Of a stretch of 64,000 nucleotides of DNA, positions 5,961-63,696 are shown in pieces. The stretch is from Hormiphora californensis. Its lineage: Eukaryota; Animalia; Ctenophora. Location of the stretch: contig CM035362.1 of the NCBI GenBank assembly GCA_020137815.1, positions 4,092,001 to 4,156,000 of the forward strand, in the 5' to 3' direction. Under the pieces are notes generated by a model. That model worked only from the letters and a program-made list of their open reading frames with translations, made no database searches and had not been told where the DNA came from. Position 1 is the stretch's first letter, and the number at the start of each line of letters is the position of its first letter. The position numbers and the translations under genes are program-made.

Positions 5961-36341
<30,381 letters not shown>

Positions 36342-36988: not shown

Positions 36989-37540
36989 TTACTTGAGGAC
37001 GTGGAAAAGGTGGCCCTGAGACACCTGAAATATAGAGGGTGTTAAGTTTCAAGTTGCTTATTATCAAAGGGCAAATTGATCTCGTACTAAGACAAGATGA
37101 CATGAATAGCATTATATATAGCTCAAAAGCGATTTGTAAATGTATAACATTAATCATTATTGCTAGCAACTTACACATTTGTCCCTGCATTCCAGAAGAT
37201 CAAAGTACTCCGGGGTGCAGTTCTCTTTCGCTCCCTCGTTGGTCACCCTGTTCTGGCAGGAGTTAAACGCATGCTTGAATCCCATACAATCGAACGAATC
37301 GACACACTTCTTCCTCTCGGCGATGATGGGATCCTTCAACTCATCCTCATCTTCTTCGTCGCCCTCATCGTCTTCATCTTCATCTTCATCTTCCTCTTCT
37401 TCCTCGGCTTCCTCCTCATCCTCATCTTCATCCTCAGCCTCGACAGAGAGGGCGACACAATCCTCAGTCTCTACAACGTCATCAACAACGGGCTCCTCCT
37501 CGACAGTCTCGATCTCCTCTTCGTGGGTAATCTCAGTCAT
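36989..37540 (-). CDS. UQCRH: Cytochrome b-c1 complex subunit 6 (hinge protein, QCR6)
   Basis: Exons 37540-37175 and 37024-36989; long acidic N-terminus, then ELKDP...C...C...C..RV...ENCTPEYFDLLECRDKC-VSQGHLFHVLK*. Confidence 0.92.
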
Positions 37541-37789
37541 GTTGTTGGTGGGTTGGTGTGGAGCTAGGGGAAGCAGTAAATGGGTTATACAAAGTTGTAA
37601 TAAGCCCGTTGACGGACGGTCACTTGCTGTCGTTTAGCCCAACATCAGTCAAAATTTGAAAAACAAAAACTCTGGGAACAACGTGCGACGTTGAAAAAAA
37701 TATAACGTCAACACCGATTTCTATCACTTATCAACAGCCGACTGCCGAGTGCCGAGTTGAAAAGCGCTGCCTTATCCCGCGGGCCGCGA

Positions 37790-38545
37790 TTATAATCTGG
37801 GTGCCTTACAGCCTCTTTAGGTGCGCGCTACCAAAAGAGTACACTCAGACCGACTTTTTTCAAGCGGCTATGCCACGCAACCACATGGCCAATTTGAGTA
37901 AACTAAACGGTATCTGTTAGAGAATCGATAGCCCTAACCGATAACCCCAAACCAAACCCTAACCAGACCCTAACGGATAGCCCTAACCCGTCGCGCGCGC
38001 TAAATCTACGAATTATTAGCAATGAAAGGCATCCAGATTTTAACGTTTTCCGGGCCGCACTGCTTTTGCCAAAAATTGGGTCGCAGGTGGGCTTGAAATG
38101 TGATTGTGCGCGGCTTTCGACAGTATTTCCTTTACATCATTATCGCCGCATTAAACGTAGCGCGCGAAAAATAAACATTTATGCGACGTCGCGGCTCAAA
38201 ATCATACACAATTCAATGCGGGCACGATTAAATTTTTAACCAGTTGTCAGCACTCACGAAACGGCCAGCGTTAAAATCTGGGTGTTTTGGGAGTGCTGAC
38301 AAACGGTTTTTTAGGGTTAGGGCTAAAGTAGGGTTAGGGTTAGGGTTGGGGTTTGGGTTGGGGTTAGGCCTTGACATTCCCTACCAGATAAACTTTGAAT
38401 CAGCCAAAACGGTTGAGTGGTTTGGCGGTTAGAGCCATTTTAGTGAATCAACTTTTTTGGCAGCGCGCACCTGTAAACAGGCCTCCAAACACCCAGATCG
38501 TAACGGCGCCCTCACGAAACACCCAGATTTTAACGCTGGCCGTTT
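37790..38545. mobile_element. Degenerate inverted-repeat element with internal TTAGGG-like repeats
   Basis: ccctaacc arm at 37932-37990 vs agggttagggtt arm at 38311-38368; inverted ggtgcgcgct/agcgcgcacc. Confidence 0.45.
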
Positions 38546-38569
38546 ATTACCTACCAGATAAACTTTGAA

Positions 38570-42477: not shown

Positions 42478-43935
42478 ATGGCAAAAAGGACCGAGAGTTC
42501 AAACAACCCATCCACGGTAGCTGATAGAAAGTTTGAAATCCCTCCTATTCTCAAAACCGAGCCAATATACGTAGAACATGTCATCAAACCTGCAACTTAT
42601 GAGACACCCCTCTCAGTTCAAACAATACCCGGGATAGATGAGAGAGATATTTTATTCAAATGTGATGGATGTGGAAAACCAGGGAGTTACCTTCTTGAGT
42701 CGGGGTATAGACTTGTTAAAACAGCAATGACGATGGAAGTTGGAACTCAAACTGGGTGTGATGAAATTACAGTGGATCCTGTAAAGATGGAGATTACTGA
42801 TCCTTTTTACTATGACTCAGTACCTACCACATCAGCTGCGTCAAGTTCACTAATAGTTGGTGAGTTTTGGAGGGAAATATATTTTTCTTCATTGGATGTA
42901 GATTCTTAACGATAAATTCTAACTGATCTTTTATTTTCAGGTGACAATAGTTCTGGCTTAGATGGAGTGGAATCTTTGGCTAAATCTGGTGGCAAAGATG
43001 AATATAGCAGTTCTAAAGATGACATGATGCTGGGTCTTACAGATGAGGCATTCAGTGATTCCAGCGAAAAAGAAGAAACAGAGGTCCAGCAGAAATTCAA
43101 CTCTACAGTCCAACTACAGTCATCCCGAACCTCTGCCAGGATTAAAGCTTTCCTCCCTGAATCTTCCTGTCACTCAAATGAAAGGGACGACGGCTATCCT
43201 CCACAGAAATTCACCAACATGTGCAATCGGGCTCCATTGGAGAAAGATTTTATTGACATTGAGAGGCAAAAAACTGTTTTCCAGTGTAAAATCAGAGGGT
43301 GTTCGGTTGAAGAAACATCGGAGAAGGACCTGTTTGAGCATGTTAGAATTGATCATCCAGATAGGAAATATCGGTGTGATATTTGTCCAATGGCATTTAT
43401 GCATTTTTATGGCCTTACTAATCACAGCCTGGTCCACAGTGGAGATAAACCCCACCGATGTGACGAGTGTGGAATGAAGTTTGGTACAAAATCACGTTTA
43501 GAAAAACATCGGCTTTCGATTCATAACGAGAAGGCTATAGTTTCCTGCCGAAAACAAAATTGTGGTGTAAGATTACCCAAGAACGAGATGCACGAGCACA
43601 TCAGAACTGCACATCCGAAAGAGAAGTTCCAGTGTGATGTTTGTCCTATGAGTTTCAAGAGATCAGGCCTATTAAATAAACATAATCGAAAACACGATGG
43701 AAAAAGACCATACGAGTGTGAGGTGTGCGGTAAGAAGTTTTCTGTATTGAGTAGTTACAAAAGACACTTAAGTTCTCATACTGGAGAGCGTTCATTTAAA
43801 TGTGATGTTTGTGGCAAATATTTTTCTCAGTCAGATGATATGAAAAGGCACATGAGGACACACACCGGCGAGAAACCGTTTCCATGTTCATTCTGTGAGA
43901 AATGTTTCACGTCTTCTTCAGATAGAAATGTTCAT
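42478..43935 (+). CDS. C2H2 zinc-finger gene, type A N-terminus (exons 42478-42859 and 42941-43935); last finger cut at an inversion junction
   Basis: About 9 C2H2 fingers with TGEKP-type linkers; phase-1 GT-AG intron. Confidence 0.88.
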
Positions 43936-44202
43936 TGTGCTAACTAGTCGGTACTCTAAACCCAAATGGTGAATACCTGATGCACCACAGCCACCGCATG
44001 TGAATGTTAAAATGTTATCTGAGGAAATTGTAATATTGGAACTCTTGGAGTCGGTGCAGGGTGTGAGAATTTCAGGTTTGATGTTGCTTTGCACCTCAAT
44101 TTGTTCCGTTTTCAGGAGGTTAGGAATTACAAACATTCTATCCGATTTGGAGACGATTACTGCTGACTCTCCAGTACCACATCTAAGTGTTCTCTTTGAC
44201 AT
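43936..44202 (-). pseudogene. ZNF type B first exon, truncated
   Basis: MSKRTLRCG...LLKTEQIEV...FTCGGCGASG...LEYRLV. Confidence 0.75.
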
Positions 44203-44438
44203 ACCTTGATGGGAGAAAAAGAAGTGATTAAAGACTTGAAACATAATAATAATTTTCAAACACGGGCACTGAAGATATTGATATGTAGATAGATTATATA
44301 AAGGTCTTCATTCGTATACATTGAGGAAAGAGTAAATTTACTTTCTCATTGACGTTTGAGTATCATAAAACACTCGAATAATCAATACAAATTCTGATAA
44401 AAGTCTCTTTTATATTTCTTAAACACAAATAAACTGAA

Positions 44439-45407
44439 TTACTGTTTCGCAGAACAGGAAAACTCATGTTCTTTTCTTTGTGAACAATGAGCAAACTTTT
44501 TCTGGCAGAAACAGCATGGAAACGGTTTCTCGCCAGTGTGTGTCCTCATATGCACCTTCATATAATGTGCTCGCGCAAATGCTTTACCACAGACATCACA
44601 TTTGAATGGACGCTCTCCAGTATGTAATTTAAGATGCATAATATAACTACCCGAATGAGAAAACTTCTTTCTGCACACCTCACACTCGTATGGTTTAATT
44701 CCATTATGTTTTCGCTTATGCATAGTTAAATCATTAGGTTTCTTGAAACTCATAGGACAAACATCACATGCAACTTCTCTTTCGGATGTGCAGTTCTGAT
44801 GTGCTCGAACAACTCATTCTTGGGTACTCTCATCCCACAATTTTGCTGTCGGCAACTAACCATCTTTTTCTCATTATGAATTGCAAGACGATGTTTGTTT
44901 AGGGCGTCTTTCATTCCAAACTTCATTCCGCACTCGTCGCATTGGTGAGGTTTATCTCCACTGTGGACCAGGCTGTGCATGGTAAGGTGACTGGTACGGT
45001 AAAAGCCATTGGACAAACATCACACCGGTATTTCCTATCTGAGTGATCAATTTTAACATGCTCAAATAGTTCATTTTCTCTAAGTTTTACAACAGAGCAC
45101 CCCCTCATTTTACACTGGTAACTAGTGTTTTGACCAGAATCCGCCCCTTTAACAATTGATAGAGAGGAAGTCACATGCAGAGAAGGCTTTTCAATTGGAT
45201 CAGCATATGTCTGATGATAAGAGGAATTTGGAGCCGTTGACCGACCATCAAAGGATTGACTAGGTAAGATTGGATTTGTAACTGGAAAATAGGACGTTTT
45301 TGTAGATTTGGATTTCTGATGTACCACCTCTTTATCATTGAAATCAATTAGCGCCTCTTTTTCAGTCTAAACATCAAGTCTGCGTCAGAGCTGCTAACCT
45401 CCTCCTC
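44439..45407 (-). pseudogene. ZNF finger exon with frameshifts, 5' end lost in the gap
   Basis: Three overlapping ORFs together give a finger array ending SCSAKQ. Confidence 0.75.
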
Positions 45408-45507
45408 NNNNNNNNNNNNNNNNNNNNNNNNNNNNNNNNNNNNNNNNNNNNNNNNNNNNNNNNNNNNNNNNNNNNNNNNNNNNNNNNNNNNNNNNNNNNN
45501 NNNNNNN
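45408..45507. other. Scaffold gap (100 N)
   Basis: Direct. Confidence 1.
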
Positions 45508-45881
45508 TGCACGAGCACATCAGAACTGCACATCCGAAAGAGAAGTTCCAGTGTGATGTTTGTCCTATGAGTTTCAAGAGATCAGGCCTATTAAATAAAC
45601 ATAATCGAAAACACGATGGAAAAAGACCATACGAGTGTGAGGTGTGCGGTAAGAAGTTTTCTGTATTGAGTAGTTACAAAAGACACTTAAGTTCTCATAC
45701 TGGAGAGCGTTCATTTAAATGTGATGTTTGTGGCAAATATTTTTCTCAGTCAGATGATATGAAAAGGCACATGAGGACACACACCGGCGAGAAACCGTTT
45801 CCATGTTCATTCTGTGAGAAATGTTTCACGTCTTCTTCAGATAGAAATGTTCATGAGGTTTCCTGTTCTGCAAAACAGTGA
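45508..45881 (+). CDS. 3' part of a ZNF gene, identical to 43589-43935 but with an intact end
   Basis: Sequence identity; ends HEVSCSAKQ*. Confidence 0.75.
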
Positions 45882-46420
45882 TATACAATGTGGGTTTGGG
45901 AAATAAGTGAGAGTGTCTGTTAAATATCTATTGACTATTAATTATGATTACCCGTGCTCGGGTGGCATTATTAATCATGTTTATTTATCAATTATTACGT
46001 GGGTGTGTTTGAGAAAAGTTTATTTGTTTTTTTGTGTGTTGAATATAAACGTAGTCAAACGCAATGAGAAACTGACTGATGATATGGTATATTATAGTAG
46101 GAGCACTTAGATAACCACGTGGTTAAAGTCGAGTGCCAAACTTTTTGTGCATTGTCATGGCTCCTTCATTTCACCTCCAATAAAAAATGGCCTTTTTAGT
46201 TTTCGAAAGATCTTGTCGAGATCTACAAAAAACTTGTGGGTCACTTTTTATTCGATGCAAAGCAAAGGAGTGACAGTAACCTAAATTTCGGGTGGCGTGT
46301 GAGTTTTGTACGTGCATGATCTAAGCGTTCCTAGTGTTTATCTATAAATTATCTTCTCAACACCGCTGTCCGCTGTTTGAAAATCAAGATTTAACGCCTA
46401 TTTTTTTCTCCTATTAAGGT

Positions 46421-46848
46421 ATGGCAAAGAGAAATCTTAGATCTGATACTGGAGAGTCAACAGAAATCGTCTCCAAATCGGCTAGAAAGTTTGAAATTCC
46501 TGTCCTCTTGAAAACGGAACAAATTGAGGTGGAAAGCAACATCAAACCTGAAGTTCTAACACCCTGTACCGACTTCAAGAGTTCCAATATAACAATTTCA
46601 TTAGATAACATTTTAACATTCACGTGTGGTGGGTGTGGTGCATCAGGTATTCACCATTTGGGTCTGGAGTATCGACTAGTGAAAACTGCAATGTTGGTGG
46701 AAGTTGGTACTCAAACTGGAGATGAGTCACGTTCTTCTGAGATTCCTGTCGAGACGTCGAATGATAGATTCTTGGATGACGAAAGCAATCCTGTCTCTGT
46801 TCCTACTTCTTTTACTGCTTCACCACTTGTTGTGTCTTCTGATAATGG
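46421..46848 (+). pseudogene. ZNF type B first exon only (part of a ~621-bp tandem duplication)
   Basis: 46259-46870 repeated at 46879-47490; no finger exon follows this copy. Confidence 0.75.
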
Positions 46849-47041
46849 TAAGCATCAGACTACTTTCACTTCGACACTGCAAAGCAAAGGAGTGACAGTA
46901 ACCTAAATTTCGGGTGGCGTGTGAGTTTTGTACGTGCATGATCTAAGCGTTCCTAGTGTTTATCTATAAATTATCTTCTCAACACCGCTGTCCGCTGTTT
47001 GAAAATCAAGATTTAACGCCTATTTTTTCTCCTATTAAGGT

Positions 47042-48390
47042 ATGGCAAAGAGAAATCTTAGATCTGATACTGGAGAGTCAACAGAAATCGTCTCCAAATC
47101 AGCTGAAAAGTTTGATATTCCTGCCCTCCTGAAAACAGAACAAATTGAGGTGGAAAGCAACATCAAACCTGAAATTATCACACTCTGCACCGACTCCAAG
47201 AGTTCAAATATTACAATTTCCGCAGATAACATTTTAACATTCACATGCGGTGGGTGTGGGGTATCAGGTATTCACCATTTGGGTCTGGAGTACCGACTAG
47301 TTAGAACAGCCACGTTGGTGGCGGTTGGTACTCAAACTGGTGATGAGTCAAGTACCTCTGAGATTCCTGTAGAGAGGTCTAATGCTCGATCCTTAGATGA
47401 CCAAAACAATCCTGTCTCAGTTCCTACTTCTTCTGCTGCTTCACCAATTGTTGTGTATTCTGATAATGGTAAGCATCAGACTACTTTCACTTCCATCTCG
47501 TTGCTATATTCTTTAATTGTGTTAATTTCATGGAAAACAGGATCAGGAGCCTATTTAAAATCCTAATGTGTTATTCGAAGTTCTAACCCTCCTTTTTATT
47601 TTCAGAAGATACTTCAGAAGATGAGGATTGCTCTGACTCAGATGAAGAGGAATCTCCGGATGAATCTGGTGGTGAGGAAGAGGTCAATGGAACAGATGAG
47701 CAGAGTTTCCAGTGTAAAATCAAAGTGTGTTCGGTTTTGAAACCAACGGAGGAGGACTTGTTCGAGCACGTTAGAATTGATCACTCAGACAGAAAATACG
47801 GTGCAATGTTTGTCCAATGGCTTTTAAGCAACCCAGCGCCCTAACTCAACACAGCCTGATCCACAGTGGAGATAAACCTTACCAATGTGACGTGTGTGGA
47901 ATGAAGTTTTTACTAAAACCTAATTTGGTAAAACATCAGTTATTGATCCATAACGTGAAAAAGACAGTTGCTTGTCGATTTAAAAGCTGTGGATTAGGAT
48001 TCCCCAACAACAACGAGTTATATGACCACATCAGAACTGCACATCCGAGAGAGAAATTCCAGTGCGATAAGTGCCCTTCTTCTTTTAAGTTTCAATCCCA
48101 ATTAATCCGCATAATCGAATCCTACTGGAATTAAACCTTACGAATGTGAGGTGTGTGGTAAAATTTTCTCAGTTAGGTCATTATAAATCACATTTTATTT
48201 TACATACGGAGAGCGTCCATTCAAATGTGATGTCTGTGGTAAAGCATTTTCTCGAGCAGAGAATATGAAGACGCATATGAGGACACACACTGGCGAGAAA
48301 CCTTTTTCTTGTTCTCACTGTGGGAAATATTTTACTAGAAAATCACACCGAAAAGTTCATGAGGTTTTCTGTTCTGCGAGCCAGAATTAA
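47042..48390 (+). pseudogene. ZNF type B gene with frameshifts in the finger exon (or consensus errors)
   Basis: Exon 1 47042-~47468; exon 2 from ~47606 with C2H2 array ending CSASQN*. Confidence 0.75.
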
Positions 48391-48581
48391 TAATTAGAGT
48401 ATTGAAAGTTGTGTGCTGTGTGTCGCAAGGGTATATTTATACTGCTATGTTTCTAAAATAAATTCTTTGATTCTTGGCGGTCCACTGTTATGCGATTATA
48501 ATGATATTTTTATTCTTCAAATTCTTATGGTTCTTACTTTGGTGACCACTATCTTAACAATTCCCTTTCTCCCATCAAGGT

Positions 48582-48911
48582 ATGGCGAAAAGAAAACGTG
48601 GGAGTCCAACTAAAAATGTCACAAAATCAGCTGAACAGTTTGATATTCCTGCCCTCCTGAAAACGGAACAAATTGAGGTGGAAAGCAACATCAAACCTGA
48701 AATTCTCACACCCTGCACCGACTTCAAGAGTTCAAATATAGCAATTTCTTCCGATAACATTTTAACATTCACATGCGGTGGCTGTGGGGCATCAGGTATT
48801 CACCATTTGGGTTTAGAGTACCGACTAGTTAGAACAGCCACATTGGTGGAGGTTGGTACTCAAACTGGAGATGAGTCAAGTTCCTCTGAGATTCCTGTAG
48901 AGAGGTCCAAT
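48582..48911 (+). pseudogene. ZNF type B first exon fused to the truncated transposase locus
   Basis: Family homology stops after EIPVERSN. Confidence 0.7.
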
Positions 48912-49262
48912 GGCATCTCTTCTATCTCGGCCCCGGTTGTCCCAGGGAGCTCAGCAACCAACAACCCGGTAAGTGTGCAAATAATTAGGTTTTTACTTCG
49001 TGTTCTCTTTCCTTCACTTTTATAATCTTGGCTCTCCTAGACCGGCCCATCAAGTAATCCTCTTTCTTTCTCTAAATCTCTAACCAATACACCCTCTCTA
49101 TACCTTCTTATTGTATTAATAAATAAATATCTTCCTAGGCTGAAGGAAGACCGCCATCTGTACAGGCATTTGTTGATGACCTAAACAAAAAATTGGCGGC
49201 CTGCAAGGATGTACAGTCAGTAACTTTGTGTACTGATATCAGGATGGCGGTGAGTTTGTCAT

Positions 49263-49512
49263 CAGGAACCGACCGAATCAGGTAAACAACCAATCAGAAC
49301 TCGTTATTAAGGTCACGTGACTGGTTATCAGCCAATCAGGGACCAGTATTACCTGATTCGGTCGGTTCCTGATGACAAACTTCTAAATGAACATGATGAC
49401 AAACAGGAACCGACCGAATCAGGTAATACTGGTCCCTGATTGGCTGATAACCAGTCACGTGACCTTAATAACGAGCTCTGATTGGTTATTTACTTGTTTC
49501 GGTCGGTTCCTG
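49263..49512. mobile_element. Two M1 MITE copies in opposite orientation with an inverted spacer
   Basis: 49263-49371 and 49404-49512; outer TSD tttgtcat. Confidence 0.85.
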
Positions 49513-50143
49513 TTTGTCATCATGTTCATTTAGAAACATTAGTTTGCCTCAATATATCGTTTGTTTTTGTTCTTTTTGTACGTATCGTAATCTATTTCAC
49601 AGATAACTCCTGCTGATGGCAAGTTAAGGTGCACCCTCAATTCCTGTAAACACAAAATTGGTATTAAGGTGCCACCGCCACCATACACAACCAATGGCAA
49701 TATTACAAAACCATTCGCTAACATGAGAAAGGCGATCAGAAATCACTTTAGCAGTGACGACCACATCAGGAACTGTCAGGCTGCGGTTGCCGTGCCTGCA
49801 ATCATGTCCAGGTCGAAGCTGGAGATCCTTAAAAAACTGCTGCTGATTGTGTACACCAACATTAAACACCGGGTTTCATTCGAGTAAGTTCTTATTACCG
49901 TCTCTCAAATTGAAAAAAAAATTCTAACACACATAAACATAGTTAGTTATTATTGTTATTATTAGCTCTTCCTGCTTAAAACTACCCTCCAATCCTATCA
50001 GGGCGTACGAAGACTATGTAACTACGATGTGGATGTTGGGTATCGATGTAGGGGATCAAGACCTTTCTAAGGAATTTCCTAGAAAGGCGCTTCCTATATT
50101 CCACGACCAAATCTTCACGGCCGCCAAGAAGAAACTCATCACC

Positions 50144-53100
50144 GTTTGCGGAAGTTTCAAACTTTTCAACACTACTTTAAACAAATTAATTTGAGTTTGC
50201 CGTCAATCGTTCCTGATAACTGTGTTAGCATCTATTCTCTAATCTTTTAGATCTCTGTTAGGCCTACTTTAACTTAACTTACGAGTGATATCAGTGAAGA
50301 GTTTGTTGTTGGCCGGCGTGCAACGGGTGTTTTAGGATGACCGTTACGAGTAATTATGACATATGTATCACTAAGAGTGATTTTGAAGACGTGTTAGCAG
50401 GAGAAGTATTTAGTAATGATTATAAGGGTAGTGATTTGTTAGTGTGCCTTGGGAGGGGTGACACTGTTTGTCCGTCGTCTGTCCATAAACCTCAGTTGTG
50501 GCATCTTCTCAAAGCCTGTTACAACATGCTTCCGGCGTCGGCACCGTTTTCTGTTCCTGGAGACCAGACTGATCTGAAAGAGTCGTTTGCAAAGCTGCAC
50601 AAGGATCTGGTTTCCACTATCTCTGCTTTGGTCAAACCTATGGAGAATAGTAGAAGTGATATTGGGTGGTGATCCAGAGGAACCGGTTACACCTACGATG
50701 AAACACTATGTGAATATTAAAACTGGCATCAATGAGGAAGGAGGGCCAGGATTCTGTGCGAAGAAGTGGACTGATGAGGTCAAACCCAAAGTGGAAACTG
50801 CGTTGAAGACGATACCGGTGGTGAGATCCAGAGTGAACAGTGACCATACCCGGCTGTATTTCCCTGATGAAGACCAGATGAAGGAAGCAGAGAAAGTTTT
50901 GACTCCACTTGCACAGGACTGTTCCATGTCATTTTTCTCAGAGGAGGCCAAGAAGCTTGAACCAAAGGTAACTATAAATGATTTGGACCCAGACCTACTG
51001 AAAAAGGAGACTATCCTGGCAGCGATTTTGGACAAGAATGTGGATATCAGAAAACTTTATCATGAGGACAAGAAGTTGAAGGTGGTGTTTGTGAGCGAAA
51101 GAGACAGGTATGCAGTATCCAGATGGCTCCAGAGATCCGGAGGCTTTTGTCTACTAACGGGGATAAGATCAACTTGGGTTTCGGCAAACACTTTGTCAAG
51201 AACAGGTATCATGTGATACAGTGTTTTCACTGTCAAGGATTTGGGCATATAGCAGGATCGATTACTGCCCCAAAAGGATACTCCAATATGCTGCTTCTGT
51301 GCTGGATCGCATCAGACGAAAGACTGTAGAGCAAGAAGAACAACGAGACTGGTAGGATGAAATGTGTGAACTGTGAAGTTGGAGGATCAAGAGAGGACAA
51401 GAAGTATTCGAAGACCCATACGGCTTCAAGTATGTGGTGCCCTTCCTACATCAATGAACGAGCACGGCTTATGGAGAGGACTGCAGGTGTAAGCAAAGAG
51501 GAAAAAAACCTGTACTGGACGAGGACCAAGGAGGAGCTACACAGGAAAAGACTTGGAAGATTGGGACACTAAATGTCCGCTCTCTTATTAACAAAACTGG
51601 AGGTGTTATTTCGCATCTGGAAGAGGAGGATTGTGATATTTGTCTTATACAGGAGACATTTTTGAAATCAACGGACACTGGAAAACTTCAAGAAATCAGA
51701 GATAATGGATGGGACATTTTCTCATGCCCCAGAGGAGACAGAGGAGGTGGAGGAATCGGAATACTTTTTCGAGATGGCATAGTTCTTCGGCAGTGTCCAG
51801 TGAAGACCAAGTATAAGTCTTTTCAAGTACAAGAGGTTCTGATCAGTGACAGAGATCAACCGAAGAGAATCTGTAATGTCTATCGTCCTCCGTACACACC
51901 GAGGTCAAGACTTACAGAAGCAACTTTCCTGTCGGAGTTGGTGACTACCTTTCCGAGCTTGTTATGAAGCAGGTACTCCGATCATCGCTGGTGACCTAAA
52001 CTTCCAGGTGCAAGATGATATAAACTTCTATGCAAGGAAACTTTTGGAGCTGCTGGATTCATTTGATCTTCACAAAAGAGTACCAATGTTGCCTACTCAC
52101 CAGCTGGGAGGAACCTTGGACTTGGTGATAACTACAAGAGAAACTTCTCTAGGTGACATATCCATATTTCCTAATGGTACTACATCCGATCACTTCCTAG
52201 TACAGTTTGGGATTCAAGTGAGACCTGACCTGTCGAACTCCTGTCTGAAGAAATCAGTGCATCGAGAATACATGGATTACAAGTCAGTGGATTTGGAAGG
52301 ATTTAAAGAGGACTTGCGGAAGGCAGATTTTGAAGGAGGTAGGGATCAGAGAGGCGTGGTGATTTCTATCGTTGGCTGGAAGGTATAGTGGAGAAGCGAG
52401 AGAGTACCGAGGAAACGGGTGAGGACTGGTAAAAAGTTTAAGCCATGGAGGGATGAGGAACTTAGAGGATTACTTCGAGAGAGGAGGAATGCAGAACGGT
52501 GTTGGCGGAAACTTGGAACTATGGATGCGAAAGGAGATTTAATGACCTGAAGAAACTGTATGGAAAGATGGATAGGAAAAGAGGTCACTTTTCATTAAAG
52601 AGGACTTGGTTGCTGCCAAAGGTGACCCAAGAAATTGCAAAGTAAGCTCCAGAAATCCTTGGAAAAGCTGAAACAATTCTTCCTGAAACAACAAACACCA
52701 AGAACTTGGCAGATGATTTCTCCCAGTTCTTTAGTTCCAAAGTGGAAAAAATTCGAACCCAAGTCAAGAGGAGCAGAAGCAAGCTGGCGACTTTGAGGAA
52801 CCCGGAAAAGCTGATTCAACATGGAAGGAATTCAAAGAGATATCGGAGGGAGGAACTTGTTAAGGTGGTGAAGTCTATGTCAAGCAAACATTGTGACCTT
52901 GATCCGTTGCCCACTTGGGTAGTAAAGGAGTGCATTAGGGATCTTGTCGGTATTAACATCGATGGTAAACCAATCTCTACATCAGTCTACAGTTGCGGAA
53001 TCTCTCCAGAAAGTTATCGTGTTTCCTACCATCAAGAATCTGTACGGAGATAGGGAAGCTCTCAGTAACTATCGTCCTGTCTCTAATATCCCATTCCTTC

Positions 53101-54800
53101 TAAGCTCCTAGAAAAGGTGTGCTCACGCAGCTGAATGAGTACCTTGAAAGCAATTCACTTCTGGGCAAGCATCAATCGGTTATCGTGCTGGTCACAGTTG
53201 CGAAACGCTGTTAGCCAGCATGTTTGATGATGTATTAGGTGAGATGGATAAAGGAAATGTTGTTGCTCTGATCTGTTTGGACATGAGTGCTGCGTTTGAC
53301 ACATGGATCATGGAAGTTGTTGGAGGTGTTGCAGAAACGGTTTGGAGTGGATGGTGATCCTCTTCAATGGTTTAAGAGCTACCGAGTTCCAGATCTTTTA
53401 GAGTCTCGGTTGGTGATTGTCTCTCGGATACCCTGGCCTACTCTGTGGAGTGCCCCAGGGGTCTCTTCTTGGTCCTATTTTGTTTCTACTTTACATTGAA
53501 GCTGTGCAAGATTGTGGAACCATATGGACTCCGGATAAAGTTATATGCAGACGACTCCCAGCTCTATGTGAGTTTGTTTCCTACGGATTCTACTGGCTGG
53601 TCTAGGACGAAGGTGGATATTGAGGAGTGTCTGGCGAAGGTGAAACGGTGGATGTGGGGCAGTGGTTGAAGTGTAATGAGGCCAAACGGAATTCATCCTG
53701 CTTGGAAAGCGCAGTTCTTTGAGTAAAATCTCTTCGATCCAGTTACAACTTTGGAGGAACGGAAATCTTCCCCAGTGAATGTAGTGGAGCAGATGGGAAA
53801 ACCTTGGGAATACTCTTGGACCACAATCTTAATCTTGAACGACAGGTTAACAATGTGAGGAAACAGTGTGGGCTGATATACGGAATCTTTGGCAGTTACA
53901 CAGATGTTGTTTGATATTCAAACGAAGATAATGCTGGTCAAACAATTGATTATATCGAGGATTGATTACAGTAATATTCTGTACTGTGGACTTCCGGCCC
54001 GAGTTCTTGGTGGGCTCCAGAAAACACTAAACTCCTGTGTACGCTTTATATTCAACATCCATGGGCATCAAGAGGATTACTCGGAATACTTCAGGCAGTG
54101 TCATATTTTACCCATCTCCTACAGACTGGACTTCAAAGCCTGTCAATCGCTTATAAGATAGTCTATGGAACGGCACCAGGTTACCTCCAGGAAATGGTTC
54201 CTCTTGATAAAAGCTGGGGAGTTCCAGGACAACAAGGATGACTAGTGTTATTGATCCTTACAGATTAAAACACCCCAAGATGACCAGTATCAACGCCAAT
54301 TCTAATTGAGAAGTAGGAGACTATCAGTATTTCTGCGCTATTTGGAATGAGCTACCCCTCGAGTTAAGGTCGATCCCCAACGTTGATACCTTTAAAGCTC
54401 GCCTGAAAACACATCTCTTCGTTGGTGCATTTGGAGTGGGTGATGGGAACCCATGGCTGAGTTGTAATGTTTGTTGTAGTTGGGGGTCTGCGGGCCATCA
54501 GTGTCATCCTCTCTCTAGTCATGTTATTAGTCGCTATCTGGTATCCTTTTTTGAGCAGGTGTGAGTATAGCGTGTTTAAAATTATATCTACAGGTTTATG
54601 GACCAGTTATTCCCCCAGTTTGATAAGTCCAGTTAATTTGGTTTCCATATATGTCTTTTTCAACCAGAATTGTTCGTGTGCGATATTTTTACTCTAGGAT
54701 ATACCGCTCTGATGACTCGTCGGAACATCGCCAATATTTTGACATGTTTCCGTCGGGTATGGGCGGTATATAAGCGCGGAATATTATTATTATTATTATT
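50144..54800 (+). mobile_element. Near full-length L2/CR1-group LINE with many frameshifts: ORF1 with zinc knuckles (~50337-51572), ORF2 APE-RT (~51550-54460), (ATT)n tail
   Basis: QCFHCQGFGH, CVNC; LNVRSL...IQETFL; GGTLDLVIT...SDH; GVPQGSLLGP; YADD; 5' boundary approximate. Confidence 0.88.
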
Positions 54801-56104
54801 AGTACCCTTGGCGGTGATAATCGATGGGGTTACCTCCCGCCAGATGTGAGTTGATCAAGCACCATCTTTTGGGCCAAAAACAAGAATAACGGTTTTCTGA
54901 TGGTTGTATTCTTTCTTATTTTGCAGGCAGCGTGTTGTGGTGGCAGTGCGATATCTTGATCTGGAAGGAGATGGACCCCTAGTCCGCATTTTGTATGCTG
55001 GCCATCCTGTCAACTCCGGCCACACCTGTGATGTAGCAGCGTTAGTGGTACCATGCCTCCAGAATATAATGCCCGATACAACATCCTTGTCCAGGTCTTT
55101 GAAATTCTTTATCACGGATGGCCACTTGATAAGTACATGTGTAAGTTTCAATCTTTTTAGACTCAAGATTACAAACATATATGGAATACTGTATCGTAAG
55201 CTTCTAAACTTTCTCGTTTGCTCCTTCAAACAGTTTTTCGTTCAGTTCAAGGACGAGATGTGTAGGAAGTTGGGTGTGTCGGTGAATGGCAGGTGCTTCG
55301 GTTGGGACTACGGCCATGCAAACCAATCCACCACCAAGGAGGCAATGAACTCGGTGGAAGGGTTGACATTTAAGATGGTTGTGGAGGAGTCTTTGGACAT
55401 CACATCGTACCTGAGGTAGTTGTACCCAAAATAGATATTCGAAACTGTAGATCTACTTTGAAACTGATAATATATGTACTGCTTATCAAGCAATTACTTT
55501 CTCAGGAAAAATCATGTACATGAGGAAGTCAAAAAAGAAATGAAATTTGTTCAGACCGACAGAACCATTGTCCACGATTTTTATAAGAACTGGAGCACTT
55601 ATGTCAAACGTAAGTAATAATGGGTGCTAAGGTCGAAATACTTTGCCCTACGTACAGTTTGTATTTATAATTACAATTCATTTTCAGTGTTGCAGAACCG
55701 TATTTCGGCAGGCACCGATGTGGCCAAGGCCCGGGCATACCTCGCTCTTATGGCATCGGATGAGTGGAAGTCGAAGCTGCTCTTCTTAAAGGTTATTGTT
55801 TGTAAATTTTATAACTCTATGAAACGTGATAATTAGCACTAGCTGAGTCGTTGTTCAGCCTTCAATTATGCAGTTTTTAGTATAATTTCTCCCGATCACA
55901 TATTGTACATGTATTAATGATTTCTCCCGATCAGGATTTCTTGTCCCTGCTCAAGAGATACTCGGTAACATGGCAGGACAACACAGCGCTCATTGGCCGG
56001 GCGGAGGAAACCAGGCACCAGTTACTTTTTGTTCTGGATAACATCCAGCTGGCTACTCCGTCCGAGGGGACCATGGCGCTCTTCCCCACGTTCCTGGAAA
56101 ACAG

Positions 56105-56199
56105 GTAAACAACCAATCAGAACTCGTTATTTAGGTCACGTGACTGGTTATCAGCCAATCAGGGACCATGGCGCTGTTCCCCACGTTCCTGGAGAACAG
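56105..56199 (+). other. Candidate newly created intron: M1 MITE core plus a duplicated exon segment
   Basis: AACAG|GTAAAC...(58 nt MITE)(37-nt duplicate of 56068-56104)...AACAG|TGTG. Confidence 0.6.
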
Positions 56200-57948
56200 T
56201 GTGGCAGGATTGGTTAACACAGCAGCAATGTGAGTTACATTTTTTGTAGTAGTTATAGTTGATATATGGGGAGATCACTACTGTACCTTTTTCTTGATGC
56301 TGATGCTATATTTGACACATATTTATTTGGGTATATATTGTATAACGCTGCTTGTTATATTTTACCAACAACGAGAATGGGATAGCCAGTGCGGAGTGTC
56401 GTAATTTATAATGTGAAGCACCCAACAATTTATTATGTATTAATTATTAATTAATTAATTAATTATTGATATTTTCAGCTCTACCCAGTCTCCTCCACAA
56501 GTTCCGGCAAGACAGGCCCAAGATAGGATGGATAATGTTGTGAACCAGGCTCAGCAGTTCATTACTAGATTTAAGACTTGCGTGGAAAACACCTGGTTCA
56601 CACATAGTCTGTGGGGGAAGGATAATTATTTTAGTTCCAGGTACCATATATCATGTTGAGATTCTTGTCATAATTTCTAGAATCGATCTTATGTAAATTG
56701 CTATCTAGCTCCATTTCTCTCTGTTTCTCTGTTTTCCCTCTCTCACATGATATTATTCAGATCCATTGAAGAATTGGGGAAATTCCACATGGAGCTCGAG
56801 AACGACATTGGGAGCCCGATTGTGGACGTTGCTGCCGGACCACTTTCCAGATGCAGGACATGTAACCTGGTAGTAGAGGGCCAGTTAAAGAGGGAGAAAC
56901 ATGCCAAATCTCATCAGCCTTCCTCCACCATGGCGCCAGTGCCCAGTGTTGCGGCTACATGGACGAGGCCTACAACACCGCCCGATTTGAGTCAGCTGAA
57001 ACTTCTGTCGACCTACCCACCCCAGGTTGGTTAATGGAACTAAGGCTTTCCTAATCACGCACAAATTTAATTTCAAACATTTCAAAATCTAACTTATCAG
57101 ATCAACCAACTGAACATGAATGTTCTAAGAACGACGCTGAAGAGGGTTGCAGCAGCTAAAGGAACAACCGACCTCGGCACGGCCATTAAGGCATTCCTCC
57201 AAGACCAAACAGCAGTTGCTACGGTCCATCCTGGCTGCCTGGAAGTCCTACTGGTGTCCTGTTCTATTGGGGGGTCTGAGGCAATAGCTGAGACAATAGG
57301 TGGTGACCTGGAATGGTACCACCAGAACCGATACTTCAATTTCGGCGATGGTGTTAAAGATGAAATGTACGTATCTTAACTAATAACAGTAAATTTTGTG
57401 CGGTCAGAGAAATTGGATTTACTTGTTTCTTGGAGTACATATCTTTCTTTGAAAGAAAACGTTCCATACAATGAACAAGTTGAATTGTTTCAGGTTACAG
57501 AAAGAGATATTTGTCAGACGGAACGGGCCACCTATCGTCCATTCCCAAGATCTAATAGACAAGGTGGCCAGAGAGATGCTGAGCGATGAACCACTAGAGT
57601 CGCCACTACAGCCTACCTGACCCCGAACACAAATGGTACACCACACTCGGTGTATCAAAACACTTTGAGAAAGGGGAAAGTAGTTGAAAAGAAACTGAAG
57701 GAGCCTGCCAGTGCATTTAAATTTTAATTTTTAATGTTTCAGTGTGCGTCTGTGTGTGAGAGAGTGCGTCTTTGTGTTTTTATCATCTACAAAACCAGTA
57801 CTTCCCTACTAGTTCGTGAACTAACGAGCATCAATGGAAACCCCCTATCCTGACCTCTCCTTCTTCCAAATTCCCCCTTCCAGATTTGACTAAACATTAC
57901 TCTTTTAACTTGTTTACCAATTCGTAAAATCTAAACTTTCTCTATTCT

Positions 57949-58097
57949 ATTATGCCAAAAACTAACAGAAATTAGTTGGCTGGAAAGGTGACCACTTTTT
58001 TGTCAAACTGACACCTTTGCCCTCTCCGGGTTTTTTCATCATTATCTTTCCCTCTCTGATCACTATTATTTCTCTCTCTCTCTCTCTCTCTCCCCCC

Positions 58098-58138
<41 letters not shown>

Positions 58139-58279
58139 CTCTCCTCTCTCCTCTCTCTCTCTCTCTCTCTCTCCTTCCCAGTTCCTCTCTTTCAGTAACC
58201 CGGCCGGGCAAAGGTGTCAGTTGACAAAAAAGTGGTCACCTTTCCAGCCAACTAATTTCTGTTAGTTTTTGGCATAATT
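57949..58279. mobile_element. MITE with ~73-bp TIRs enclosing a (CT)n tract
   Basis: attatgccaaaaactaacagaaattagttggctgg...ccagccaactaatttctgttagtttttggcataat. Confidence 0.8.
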
Positions 58280-58904
58280 AGGTATATTTTGGTATTTCTG
58301 ATTTAAAATACGATGAAGACATGTCTGGACGTAGCAGAACTTGTAAAGACCGTCAGGAATCGCTAAAATACGAAATTTCAATTTTGACGTCATTGTGACG
58401 TCATAGCGCGACGTCACGACGTTATAACGTCATGCTAGTGAAAAATTAGTATCAGGCTCATCTAGATAAAGATGCTGACCAAGTTTGAGATCGATTGGAC
58501 GAGATTTGAGGTCGCTATGGCGAAAAACAAACTATCGTCATATCTATTTTCATACAGTCTTAACACTTCAGACGCGATTTAAGACCCTTGAAAATAGAGT
58601 TTCACAAATTCGCTATATAGTTTCTGAAAGTTTAGACAATTACCTTTCGCAAGTGTGGTCTCCATTTTTCAATCAGAAGCCGTCTCAATGTGTAAATTGA
58701 GCTCAAAGAAATTTGGTTGATTTGAAAAATGTCTTAACTTTATGACAGTATTTCAGGACGTTCTGGTTGGACGGAACATGAAAACCGTCCAATACACAAT
58801 TCAGACGATTATCTTCGAATGCAACAAACGAGAAGTGTCTACTTTATGTAGTCTTTCCAGAAAACTGTCTGCAAATTGTGTAAAAAAGCGTCTATATGTA
58901 TGTA

Positions 58905-58941
<37 letters not shown>

Positions 58942-59209
58942 CAGGGACATTTATTGCTTTTTCACCATGTCAGAACTCTGAAACCCAAAAGAGATAGAGA
59001 CTTGCCCTTTTGAACTCAGTAGATCTAGTCTCACTGACACTGTATACCAATTTCAGACCGATTGGGTGCAGTGGGGGCTTCGCTATGGGCGTCGCAAAAT
59101 GACGTTTTTGGCTAAAAACTGAAAAAACTTATTACTGCTTTCTGGCACGCGCGGCTGGGGGGAGGTGGTGGTCACCTTTGCGCTTGCCAGCGCAGTGATT
59201 CAGGATATA

Positions 59210-60812
59210 ATGGCAAAAAGTAAACCTGACCGACCAAGAGCTGGTAGTTCAGAGAGTCCCGCCACGACAGCCGATAGAAAGTTTGAAATTCCTCCCCTTC
59301 TTAAAACTGAACCAATATACGTGGAATCTGCGATTTATGATACTCCCTGCCCAGTTTTTAAGATTCAAACAATACCAGGGGTAGATGAGAACGATATTTT
59401 ATTCAAATGTGATGGATGTGGAAAACAAGGGAGTTGCCTTCTGGAGTCAGGGTATAGACTTGTTAAAACCGCCATTTTGGTAGAAGGTGGAACTCAAACT
59501 GGGTGCGATGAAATTACAGTGGATCCTATAAAGATGGAAATTACTGATCCTCTCTACTATGACTCAATTCCTACCACATCAGATGCTTTACCACTAATTG
59601 GTGAGTTTTGGAATGTTTTTTATTGTGTTTCTCTCTTTCGATGTATCTTATGTAGATATCCTCAATGTAAATTCTAAATTATCTTATTTTTCAGATGATT
59701 TGTACAAGTTGGTGCTCAGATGAAGGAGAATCTGGTGGTGAGGAAGAGGTAAGCAGCTCTGAAGATGACACGATGTTGGGTAAAAAGAGGAGACACTCGG
59801 AGAAAAAGAAGAAGGAGTTCTGCAGAGTTCTTCCCGGATTCCCACCTCTGACCAAACGTCCCTGTTTCCCAGTCACAAATCCTACCTCGACAAACTGTTC
59901 ATGACCAACCGACTACTTCCGATCCTGATTTTCGTCAGACTTCTGCCAAGAATAAAGCTGATCCAATAAATAAGCCTCTACTTTCTTTCCTGTATGGATC
60001 TTCCTATCAGTCAAGTCCGGAAGAGTCGTATTCTCCTCAAACTGTGAGCAATCGAACCTCGCTAGCAATAGATTTTCCTGAAGAAAGTGGGCAGAACGCT
60101 CGTTACCAGTGTCAAATTATGCGGTGCTCAGTCGTTACATCATCGGAGAAGGACCTGTTCGAGCATGTTAGAATTGCTCACTCGGAAAGGAGATACCGTT
60201 GCGATTCTTGTCCAAAGGCGTTTATGTATCATAGTGAGCTTACTAAGCACAGCATGATGGTCCACAGTGGAGATAAACCTTTCCAATGTGACGAGTGTGG
60301 AATGAAATTTGGACTGAAAGTTACTCTAAAGCGACACCGGGATTCTATTCATAATGAGAATAAGGTGGTTTCATGTCGTATCCAGAAATGTGGAGTTAGA
60401 TTACCAAAGAGTGAGTTACATGAGCACATCAGAACTGCACATCCAAAAGAGAAGTTCCAGTGTGAAGTTTGTCCCATGAGTTTCAAGCGATCAGACCTAT
60501 TAAATAAACATAAGCGAAAACATGATGGAAATAAACCATTTGAGTGTGAGATTTGCAAGAAAAAATTTGCTACTAACAGTTCCTATAAAAAACATTATAA
60601 TTTACATACTGGAGAGAGTCCATTCAAATGTGAGGTCTGTGTCCATTAAATGTGAGGTCTGTGGTAAAGCATTTTCTCAGGCAGTTCATATGAGAAAGCA
60701 TTTGAGGTCACACACTGGCGAAAAACCGTTTCCATGTTCATTCTGTGAGAAATGTTTCACGTCTTCTTCAGATAGAAATGTTCATGAGGTTTCCTGTTCT
60801 GCAAAACAGTGA
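59210..60812 (+). pseudogene. ZNF type A gene; frame disrupted near 59900 and by a 22-bp duplication near 60620-60665
   Basis: Exon 1 59210-~59600; exon 2 from ~59695; C2H2 array ending SCSAKQ*. Confidence 0.78.
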
Positions 60813-61270
60813 TACAATGTGGGTTTGGGAAATAAGTGAGAGTGTTATTATATATCTACTGACTATTAATTATGATTACCCGTGCTCGGGTGGCATTATT
60901 ATTCGTGTTTATTTATTAATTATTACGTGGGTGTGTTGGAGAAAAGTTTATTTGTTTTTTTTGTGTGTTGAATATAAACGTAGTCAAACGCAATGAAAAA
61001 GTGACTGATGATATGGTATGTTATATCTAATAGTAGGAGCACTTAGATAACCACGTGGTTAAAGTCGTGTGCCAAACTTTTTGTGCATTGTCATGGCTCT
61101 TTCATTTCACATCCAATAAAAATGGCCTTTAAATTTTCGAAAGATTTTGTCGAGATCTACAAAAAACTTGTGGGTCATTTTTTATTCGATGCAAAGCAAA
61201 GGAGTGACAGTAACCTAAATTTCGGGTGGCGTGTGAGTTTTGTACGTGCATGATCTAAGCGTTCCTACTA

Positions 61271-61369
61271 CAGTCGGACCCCGATTTAGTGGCATCTTCG
61301 GGGGAAAGGGTTTTGTCCACTAAATCGGGGTGCCACTAAACCGGTGGCCACTAAATCGGGGTCCGACTG
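61271..61369. mobile_element. M2 MITE
   Basis: TA|CAGTCGGACCCCG...CGGGGTCCGACTG|TA; absent from paralogous sites near 46332 and 46953. Confidence 0.85.
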
Positions 61370-61464
61370 TATAACAATTTGTTAAGTGTTTATCTATAAA
61401 TTATCTTCTCAACACCACTGTTTGAAAATCAAGATTTAACGCCTATTTTTTCTCCCATCAAGGT

Positions 61465-62200
61465 ATGGCAAAGAGAAAACTTAGATGTAGTACTGGAGAG
61501 TCACGAAATTGCTCCAATCGGCTAGAAAGTTTGTGATTCCTACCCTCTGAAAAAGGCAAATTGAGGTGGAAAGCAACATCAAACCTGAAATTCTACACCC
61601 CTGCACCGACTCCAAGAGTTCAATTACAATTTCAGATAACATTTTAACATTCACATGCGGTGGCTGTGGGTGATCAGTATTCACCATTTGGGTTTAGAGT
61701 ACCGACTAGTTAGACAGCCACTGGTGGAGGTGGTACTCAAACTGTGATGATCCAGTTCCGCTGAGATTCCTGTCGAGGCGTCCAATGTCATCTTGGATGA
61801 CCAAACAATCCTGTCTCAGTTTCTACTTCTTCTGCTGCTCCACAAATTGTTGTGTCTTCTGATAATGGTAAGCGTCAGACTACTTTCATTGATCTCGTTG
61901 TTAAAATATTTAATTGTGTTTATTTCATGTAAAACAGGATCAGGAGGCGATAAATCCTAATGTGTTAGTTCTAACCCCTTTTTATTTTCATGATACTTCA
62001 GAAGATGAGGATTGTCTGACTCATATGAAGAGGGAACCTTTGGTGAATCTGGTGGTGAAGAAGAAGATGCTCAGCCTTGTTCAACCCAAAATCTCACACC
62101 TCCAAACCTCGGCCAGAATCAATACATTTTCCTAAACCATCCCTTCCAATCCAGCCGGTCTCTTCGAAAGCTAACAAGGTATCTGCACCTTCCAGTACCA
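61465..62200 (+). pseudogene. Degenerate ZNF type B copy without fingers
   Basis: Many 1-bp deletions relative to the 47042 copy. Confidence 0.7.
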
Positions 62201-62859
62201 AACAAGATTAAAAATCATTAACATTAAGATAAAGAGAAAGTCTTTAAAAATTTATCGATGGGGAACTTAATCCAATAAACAAGAATTATTGCATTATGTA
62301 TTCATAATGCTGTGTTTCCCTGCCCTACCGTTTCACATGTCAGTGACATTGTCACTGCCAACAGGATCAAGGCTTGGTCATAATGTAATGTGAGATGCAT
62401 ACGATCTAGCTGTCAGTATACTTCTCACATAACTTAGAGTTAGCTAACTCCCAATCACATGACACTTGCTAACCAGCTTTTGACATTCCAACTTAACTAC
62501 TTATTTAACATCTCACACTCGACTCGCAAGATGAAAATGTGTACGTAACACGCGAAACGCGTGGCAGAGCATTTCATGTTTTGTTGAGTGGCGCACGCAC
62601 ACACGTCCATCAAACTGTGTCAATGAGGTGTTTGATGAAGGAGTAGCTCGTCACTGTGCGTGCGGCTCTAGTTGCTACACCGTTGCCCTCGCAACGAAAG
62701 TGTGACCAAAAAATGTCCCTCTACCGATTAGTTAGTATACCAAAATGTCGTTTTCGAATTCTAACCCTGCTATGCCTTTTTACAAAGTAAAAAGGCATCC
62801 GGGTGAATGCCTTCGGCATTCACCCGGGCAGGGAAAAAATATCTCCCTCCAAAACTCAC

Positions 62860-63241
62860 CAAATAGTGATGAAACAGCTGATGTGGTAGGAACTGAGTCA
62901 TAGTACAAAGGATCAGTAATTTCCATCTTTACAGGATCCATTGTAATTTCATCGCACCCAGTTTGAGTTCCAACTTCCACCAAAATGGCTGTTTTGACAA
63001 GTTTATACCCCGATTCCAGAAGGTAACTCCCTGGTTTTCCACAGCCATCACATTTGAATAAAATATTATTCTCCTCTACCCCTGGTATTGTTTGAATCTT
63101 GAATACTGGACAGGGAGTTTCCACGTATATTGGTTCAGTTTTCAGAAGGGGAGGAATTTCAAACTTTCTATCGACTGCAGCTGTCATGACGGGGCTTTTT
63201 GAACTAACAGTTCTAGGTCGGCCAGCTTTTCTTTTTGCCAT
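62860..63241 (-). pseudogene. ZNF type A first exon, preceded by a finger remnant at 63260-63470
   Basis: MAKRKAGRP...KFEIPPLLKTEPIYVE...FKCDGCG...EVGTQTG. Confidence 0.75.
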
Positions 63242-63696
63242 TGTATCCTGTATGAAATAGAGAAAGTTCATAAACTGCTTGAGAAAACATTTTACCACAC
63301 ACATTACATTTGAATGGACGCTCTCCAGTATGTGAACTAATATGCCGTCTATACTCTATAATTATTTGATTGAGAAAACTTCTTCCCATATATGACATAC
63401 CTTACACTCGTATGGTTTATTTCCATGGAAATAAACATAATGCACTATGTTTTCGCTCATGTTAACTTAAAGCTGGCCGATAGTAAAACGCTCCCCCAAA
63501 AATCTGGGTGTTTCGTGGCCTGTTTAATTTTTACGAAGGCCGGGCTACCGGTTCAAATAGAATATATGTCAGTACAATATTATTTACATGAATAGGTATA
63601 AAAATAAAATTTACTCTTACGGGTGTAATAAGTTAATTATAAATAAATCAGATAATAAGATGAAAATCGTTTGTTTTGCTACAAAAGTGTGTCCAT

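Follow-up and report, generated by a model that had tools for sequence, protein, structure and literature searches.

We analysed a 64,000-nucleotide stretch of the genome of the comb jelly Hormiphora californensis (GCA_020137815.1, contig CM035362.1, positions 4,092,001 to 4,156,000; referred to here as the window, with positions counted from its first letter). We read it as the site of a tandemly expanding family of eight-finger C2H2 zinc-finger (ZNF) genes whose first exon encodes a likely portable repression module, with one copy of that exon attached to a gene that is probably a hAT-type transposase; our estimate of the probability of this reading is about 0.5. The first exon very probably encodes an effector module, and the analysis supports its description as uncatalogued, lineage-restricted, placed on its own exon and kept by selection.

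The first-exon module and its finger arrays

Eight module exons were located, with the ATG at 42478, 46421, 47042, 48582, 59210 and 61465 on the forward strand and at 44202 and 63241 on the reverse strand; we refer to the copies by these positions. They fall into the two subtypes recognised in an earlier note on this DNA, A (42478, 59210 and 63241; n = 3) and B (the other five), and carry the LKTE, CxxC, YRLV and GTQT motifs that it described. The earlier note also placed the module on its own phase-1 exon ahead of fingers, which holds in part: six exons end in a phase-1 donor, whereas the donor of 48582 is phase 0 and the 44202 exon is cut before TQT, and a finger array follows the module within the window in three of the eight cases (42478, 47042 and 59210) but not in the remaining five.

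The profile hidden Markov model of exon 1 proposed at that stage was informative. Scanned in full with HMMER, 1.84 billion representative proteins yielded 39 matches, of which 37 are the module; P0041 and P0044 are unrelated and were excluded from all counts. A word-index search recovered 16 of the 37 relatives, most of which carry C2H2 arrays, and a third homologue search, limited to 577–2000 amino acids, gave five proteins that were already known. All organism-labelled relatives are from Pleurobrachia bachei (5 accessions; 14 further sequences share the sb/ naming), as expected of the lineage-specific module that had been suggested, and the remainder are ENA or JGI fragments; two scans of metagenomes found no locus. 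The window does not match these homologues exactly and so probably stems from a close relative. The P. bachei gene models P0001–P0005 each fuse two or three such genes, so that P. bachei has the tandem layout too. In P0014 and P0011, also from P. bachei, the module is joined to an F-box or to a long interspersed nuclear element (LINE) ORF1, probably through merged predictions. With 37 relatives in the database and a spliced RNA contig (below), the module is not confined to this locus and is probably expressed.

Nothing real matched the module sequence in Pfam, NCBIfam or the PDB. The Pfam profiles of KRAB, SCAN, BTB and ZAD match none of the 32 aligned module members at E 1, bearing out the earlier impression that the module belongs to none of these; the best Pfam profile was CpXC (5 of 32 members, E 0.022, below the cut-off). 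Residues C69, C72, Y84, V87, Q98 and T99 are invariant in all 32 rows, and C69 and C72 are the only invariant cysteines, an upstream TPC cysteine being absent from many rows. The module is under purifying selection: the ratio of nonsynonymous to synonymous rates (dN/dS; Nei–Gojobori on overlapping pairs, codon bootstrap) within subtypes is 0.26 (0.15–0.43), and the CxxC–TQT core has values of 0.12 (subtype B) and 0.35 (subtype A) compared with 0.52–0.72 for the N-terminus. In contig 10 of an oligo-dT metatranscriptome (X12), 47391–47467 runs directly into 47605–47815 with the predicted intron gone, so that the effector exon is spliced to the finger exon as in KRAB- and FiNZ-type systems; a second X12 contig carries a subtype A module exon.

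The module has a basic N-terminus and between one and three SUMO consensus sites, together with the CxxC and a hydrophobic stretch that ends in TQT. Across 50 module instances from the window and the database, psi-K-x-E is matched 82 times (9.3 in shuffles) and occurs at least once in 43, establishing that the SUMO consensus sites noticed earlier are conserved. The same is true of TQT, which is present in 42 of the 50 (1.2 in shuffles; the copies are related and were chosen by a pattern ending in QT). A count anchored on YxLV in 52 copies gives CxxC in 51 and TQT in 42, with IQT in 6, SQT in 2, TQA in 1 and none in 1; xQT is thus retained in 50. Because the copies are related, these counts show conservation and not independent origins. 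Just ahead of the acidic tail, 20 of the 50 instances match the SIMa consensus for a SUMO-interacting motif (SIM; 2.1 in shuffles; consensus from PMC3395311); the SIM-like motif is present in subtype B and in the most distant copies. LC8 (DYNLL) recognises an eight-residue motif that has TQT as its anchor, and it brings about dimerisation of the silencer Panoramix (PMC7861614); by sequence the module fits the description of such a client. The acidic start of exon 2 (43010–43045 in the window, and in relatives) holds a second conserved patch, SSSEDDMMLGLTDE-like, in both subtypes.

AlphaFold2 places strands at residues 56–59, 64–68 and 75–79 around the CxxC, with a predicted local distance difference test (pLDDT) of 78–86 over residues 51–80; in the monomer, residues 84–99 are without strands and the rest of the module is left open (predicted template modelling score, pTM, 0.31). 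Residues 56–79 are predicted to form a three-strand half zinc ribbon. Foldseek returned no match to the fold at E 0.001, and the best VIA result was Z 2.2; the top Foldseek rows (E 0.5–2) are small chains of Pol II–ELOF1, XPA and RNase P entries, which we take to be zinc ribbons, a weak hint. A prediction of the homodimer with zinc, made without an alignment, scored 0.01 and is evidence neither way.

The window genes carry tandem C2H2 arrays with TGEKP-type linkers (zf-H2C2_2 matches at E 8.5e-39 and 1.7e-27). Each array holds eight fingers, the last of which is C2HC, rather than the roughly nine first counted; P0006 also has eight. Contact positions -1, 2, 3 and 6 differ from copy to copy, as had been noted, and vary most, with dN/dS of 0.93 (0.58–1.38) compared with 0.23 (0.12–0.37) for other finger codons, an approximately fourfold faster rate. 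Finger 4 was excluded from this test, as were all fingers with frameshifts and the copies of fingers 5–7 that are duplicated after the gap. Finger 1 is conserved (dN/dS 0.21), and without it, an exclusion decided post hoc, the contact-site value is 1.28 (0.81–2.07). The dN/dS check that the earlier note had called for therefore finds contact sites faster than other codons but not significantly above 1; the rates fit changing targets or relaxed constraint, and positive selection is unproven by them. Fingers 1 and 4 (43285, 45114, 47713, 60110 and 47973) have a long C-x4-C spacing and acidic helices that are kept across copies and in P0045; judging by these residues, they likely bind protein and do not read bases.

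A module exon joined to a transposase-like gene

The 48582 copy resembles 47042 up to approximately 48912, where foreign sequence begins, followed by a phase-0 donor at 48968. Joined to the exons downstream, which were picked by hand for an open frame, it gives a 14-exon model with canonical GT–AG exons and 860 codons that contains 0 stops, compared with 46 and 49 in the other frames. The intron at 55141–55245 is spliced out in X12 contig 15. A DNA contig of a different sample (X3) spans the junction between the module and the transposase-like gene (48878–49055) with one difference, and the junction is therefore not peculiar to this assembly. The chances slightly favour the fusion being made as one protein in some individuals.

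On the basis of its motifs, the gene at 49139–57620 is likely a hAT-like transposase. The fusion model has D317, D388, DxxH at 416–419 and E790/E794 in hAT-like order, the late E being assigned through what we take to be the hAT pattern. The long span from the second D to E (approximately 406 residues; approximately 320 in Hermes) and the C-terminal patterns presumably also resemble hAT. A C/DxxH after the second D marks the hAT, Kolobok, P, MuDR and Dada groups (PMC3706591, PMC8869645). With hAT and Dada the gene shares the order D, D, DxxH, E, many introns, an N-terminal C-x4-C finger and the finding of no terminal repeats (PMC3706591, PMC8869645), and its D–D spacing of 71 is close to the 68 of Dada-U6_DR; however, the second D-to-E span of Dada-U6_DR is 176, and the finger of the fusion gene ends H...H, not CxxC. 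Membership of Dada was set aside because of the spacing and because no tRNA or snRNA gene lies close by. A single-sequence model of one transposase stretch reached a pLDDT of 32. Around the gene, among the 25 longest of 192 repeats, we found no terminal inverted repeats and no 8-bp target duplication, only a chance 10-mer. Summed X1 depth is 115–156 over the fusion compared with 440–2250 over the finger genes; this is not a copy number, and it suits a low-copy host gene. A multi-copy transposase in X3 was considered and dropped, X3 being about ten times deeper than X1 everywhere.

In an unrooted tree (5 of the 50 instances, all short, omitted), the fused copy falls inside a group of ZNF-linked copies (96/95), which indicates that the transposase acquired its module exon from a finger gene and makes the fusion a parallel to KRAB–transposase fusions. 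Compared with 47042, the fused copy has a dN/dS of 0.27, and it keeps the CxxC–TQT core, with the acidic tail lost. Skipping the exon that a LINE interrupts leaves 800 open codons; since that exon holds the first catalytic D, the product would be catalytically dead. In P0013, on a deep, long branch, the module precedes a finger that aligns with the finger of the window transposase (score 42; 9 of 2000 shuffles score as high; region selected by eye), and BLAST gives no match between P0013 and the window transposase at E 10; from this alignment, P0013 may be a second, older fusion.

At 56105–56199 of the fusion gene, a copy of the abundant genomic repeat and a short duplication of exon sequence form a GT–AG intron, with the frame restored through the second acceptor, and the intron is repeat-made. 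Intron 2 contains a nested inverted set of this abundant repeat (49253–49535).

Gene layout and other features of the window

The only uninterrupted gene model is 42478 (467 amino acids, on the assumption that the gene ends beyond the gap). Frameshifts are present in the 47042 and 59210 models and in the 61465 copy, whose second exon halts ahead of the fingers; single-base frameshifts may be assembly errors, and an X1 contig over 47850–48157 exceeds the window by 2 bases, although it may be a paralogue. Segments 43589–43935 and 45508–45854 are 100% identical on either side of a 100-N gap, and for this reason the inverted block at 43936–45407 is probably a misjoin. A 620-base tandem duplicate (46256–47493; 92%) sets two module exons ahead of one finger exon; the 46421 exon is phase-compatible with both the 47042 module exon and the finger exon, so that the phases permit either module exon or both in series, the latter with two TQT sites. 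The distance from a finger-gene stop to the next module ATG is 192–653 bases, and every module ATG sits 2–10 bases after an AG, mostly with a pyrimidine tract. Because a spliced leader is commonly added to ctenophore mRNAs (PMC8527503), these AGs are likely leader-acceptor sites; no read shows a leader on a module exon.

Within the LINE that splits the transposase-like exon, 50153–50195 is identical to the final 43 bases of the leader given in PMC8527503, and contigs from X15 map there with many differing 3' continuations; the element was likely copied from leader-spliced RNA. Elsewhere, the window holds a second LINE (38534–40957) with an open 807-amino-acid frame (RVT_1, E 2.7e-30), a tandem array with a unit of approximately 114 bases over 8.6 kb (10372–19005), a 956-base near-palindrome that is 96% self-complementary (40–995) and an element like a miniature inverted-repeat transposable element, with perfect 58-base arms flanking a (TC)n core (57949–58278). 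An open reading frame on the reverse strand (37163–37633) has an acidic N-terminus and a cysteine-spaced tail, and presumably resembles the complex III hinge subunit.

Table 1. Module, finger-array, transposase-like and LINE features, in window coordinates
Feature	Position	Strand	Remarks
Module exon, subtype A	42478–42859	+	Phase-1 donor; splice acceptor 10 nt before ATG
Acidic linker and C2H2 array exon of 42478 gene	42941–43935	+	Cut by inversion; true end probably 45855–45881
Module exon, subtype B	43936–44202	-	Broken off before TQT by probable misjoin
Orphan finger-array exon	44439–45366	-	Frameshifted; own first exon lost in gap
Exact duplicate of 43589–43935 and array end	45508–45881	+	Directly 3' of 100-N gap
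Module exon, subtype B, tandem duplicate	46421–46847	+	No finger exon of its own
Module exon, subtype B	47042–47468	+	RNA splice to 47606 exon
Finger-array exon of 47042 gene	47606–48390	+	Single-base frameshifts, may be assembly errors
Module exon, subtype B, first exon of fusion	48582–48968	+	Phase-0 donor
Likely hAT-like transposase gene, exons 2–14	49139–57620	+	Identity from motifs alone
Transposase-like exon	49139–49249	+	
Transposase-like exon	49603–49883	+	C-x4-C...H-x5-H finger
Transposase-like exon	50002–50150 and 54803–54845	+	Split by LINE; IIDG
LINE inside transposase-like exon	50151–54802	+	Spliced leader at start (50153–50195); (TTA)n tail
Transposase-like exon	54927–55140	+	ITDG
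Transposase-like exon	55246–55415	+	DxxH
Transposase-like exon	55506–55609	+	
Transposase-like exon	55688–55791	+	
Transposase-like exon	55935–56104	+	
Transposase-like exon	56200–56229	+	
Transposase-like exon	56479–56640	+	
Transposase-like exon	56761–57025	+	
Transposase-like exon	57101–57366	+	SEAIAE
Transposase-like exon	57494–57620	+	
Module exon, subtype A	59210–59600	+	First exon of 59210 gene
Finger-array exon of 59210 gene	59696–60812	+	Frameshifts; short duplication near 60640
Module exon, subtype B	61465–61867	+	Multiple 1-base deletions; break in second exon at approximately 62064
Module exon, subtype A	62860–63241	-	Degenerate finger remnant upstream (63267–63426); no finger exon downstream

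Proposed mechanism, competing readings and known systems

In the mechanism that we propose, LC8 would grip the TQT of two chains and align them side by side, as for Panoramix, and the two CxxC of the paired chains may share one zinc; SUMO on the flanking lysines and the SIM would collect co-repressors, and the fast-changing fingers 2–8 would choose the DNA where these gather. Through the fusion, the same repression handle would reach the termini of the element to which the transposase belongs. From its motifs, LC8 binding by the module is fairly likely and repression through SUMO has roughly even odds; that transposons are the main targets of the fingers is doubtful. The TQT, the SUMO consensus, the SIM-like motif and the transposase capture would all point toward the effector role put forward in the earlier note, which they partly support.

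We acknowledge that several observations weigh against repression by the module and against the fusion. The motif counts rest on related copies retrieved by a profile that holds the same motifs, and the SIM-like motif is absent from all three subtype A copies of the window and from the fused copy. The TQT lies approximately 20 residues after the predicted fold, in a hydrophobic stretch, and could be a fourth strand instead of a freely accessible LC8 site; the acidic tail is compatible with an activator as well. The contact-site dN/dS interval spans 1 with or without finger 1, and the majority of the copies in the window are interrupted or partial. The X12 RNA contigs have a depth of 2–7 and the metatranscriptome may stem from another species, and none of the four contigs of the X15 RNA placed on the window carries the module. 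As for the fusion, single-exon profile, sequence and metagenome searches with the transposase-like exons match no known transposase, in the present assembly the LINE interrupts the exon that encodes the first catalytic D, no listed RNA contig crosses the 48968–49139 splice, and the eight listed variants in transposase exons (four silent, four residue-changing) say little.

The module could instead be a ZAD-like dimerisation or scaffold domain on general chromatin or insulator-type factors, without special transposon silencing. The invariant CxxC and predicted small beta fold suit such a domain, the TQT would serve dimerisation, the contact-site interval includes 1, and Drosophila ZAD-ZNFs are described as without specific targeting of transposable elements (PMC10547256). 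We nevertheless regard it as rather unlikely, given that the SUMO sites are conserved along with a SIM-like motif and that its capture by a transposase-like gene is in keeping with a dominant regulatory handle. It is improbable that the proteins are activators, in which activation would come from the acidic tail with its conserved DDMMLGL patch, located where exon 2 begins, and would merely be tuned by SUMO and LC8. Both subtypes and the majority of P. bachei proteins retain this acidic and hydrophobic patch, and ASCIZ is a zinc-finger activator with TQT sites that is tuned by LC8; however, it is the CxxC–TQT core that is best conserved, and the fused copy retains this core without the acidic tail.

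For the fusion, a dead rearrangement broken by the LINE, with no fusion protein, is a serious minority possibility and is compatible with a functional ZNF family. The LINE within a coding exon, the lack of a listed RNA contig over the fusion splice and the many broken copies nearby would follow from it, whereas the in-frame donor at 48968, the presence of the junction in a second sample, the otherwise clean frame and the 800 codons left open by skipping the broken exon speak for a fusion that can be read. The direction of transfer could also be reversed, the module having originally been the N-terminus of hAT-like proteins before ZNF genes took it over, with the window fusion a late swap back. 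The module of P0013, ahead of its transposase-type finger, and likewise that of P0015, which is without a C2H2 array, could be taken in this sense; the nesting of the fused copy within the ZNF clade, albeit in an unrooted tree, the lack of a BLAST match for P0013 and the absence of inverted ends beside the gene make it very improbable.

By profile the module is not KRAB, SCAN, BTB or ZAD, and it is unlike FiNZ as described, yet it is built like those systems. The ZAD-ZNFs of insects are likewise a lineage-expanded C2H2 family whose N-terminal module bears cysteines and may dimerise; each ZAD chain coordinates zinc through four cysteines, whereas the comb-jelly module has two invariant cysteines and no Pfam ZAD match. 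The KRAB fold consists of helices, whereas the module fold is predicted to be beta and the sequences do not match. KRAB-ZNFs otherwise resemble the present family in their tandem clusters, variable contact residues, effector exon captured by a transposase gene and two-exon layout, which is described for both KRAB- and FiNZ-ZNFs (PMC10547256). In tetrapods, transposase fusions involve KRAB more often than any other domain, the KRAB fusions repress at the ends of their own elements, and hAT supplies 23.4% of transposase fusions (10.1101/2020.05.07.082677); the present fusion differs in being LINE-interrupted and read from DNA. The FiNZ-ZNFs of cyprinid fish are also an expanded family with an acidic, lineage-restricted and relative-less N-terminal exon before the finger-array exon, with approximately 700 genes, positive selection and demonstrated derepression of transposable elements (PMC10547256). 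Compared by description, FiNZ has 28 amino acids and is Glu-rich, whereas the module has approximately 80–105 and carries CxxC, TQT and the SIM-like motif (PMC10547256). Panoramix (PICTS/SFiNX) similarly uses TQT for LC8-driven dimerisation in a silencing factor, but it has two TQT sites, is Piwi-guided and lacks fingers, whereas the module has one TQT and its fingers would do the targeting (PMC7861614).

In the open literature, searched by title and the start of the abstract with subscription journals outside the coverage, we found no description of this module family; the main text of the FiNZ survey is without ctenophores and leaves the mode of non-KRAB silencing open (PMC10547256). Effector domains of expanded ZNF families have so far come from tetrapods, insects and cyprinid fish. 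The module sequence itself points to likely partners, SUMO and LC8, which makes the mechanism addressable with few point changes. We consider it unlikely that comb jellies independently built a KRAB-like system in which a SUMO/LC8 silencing cassette on fast-evolving, transposon-tracking fingers was captured at least twice by hAT-like transposases (at this locus and in P0013), giving rise to new repressors. If true, the animal lineage that branched off deepest would have arrived convergently, and through another chemistry, at both zinc-finger policing of transposons and transposase capture. A fusion of the KRAB–transposase kind outside vertebrates would suggest that capture follows wherever a portable regulatory exon exists.

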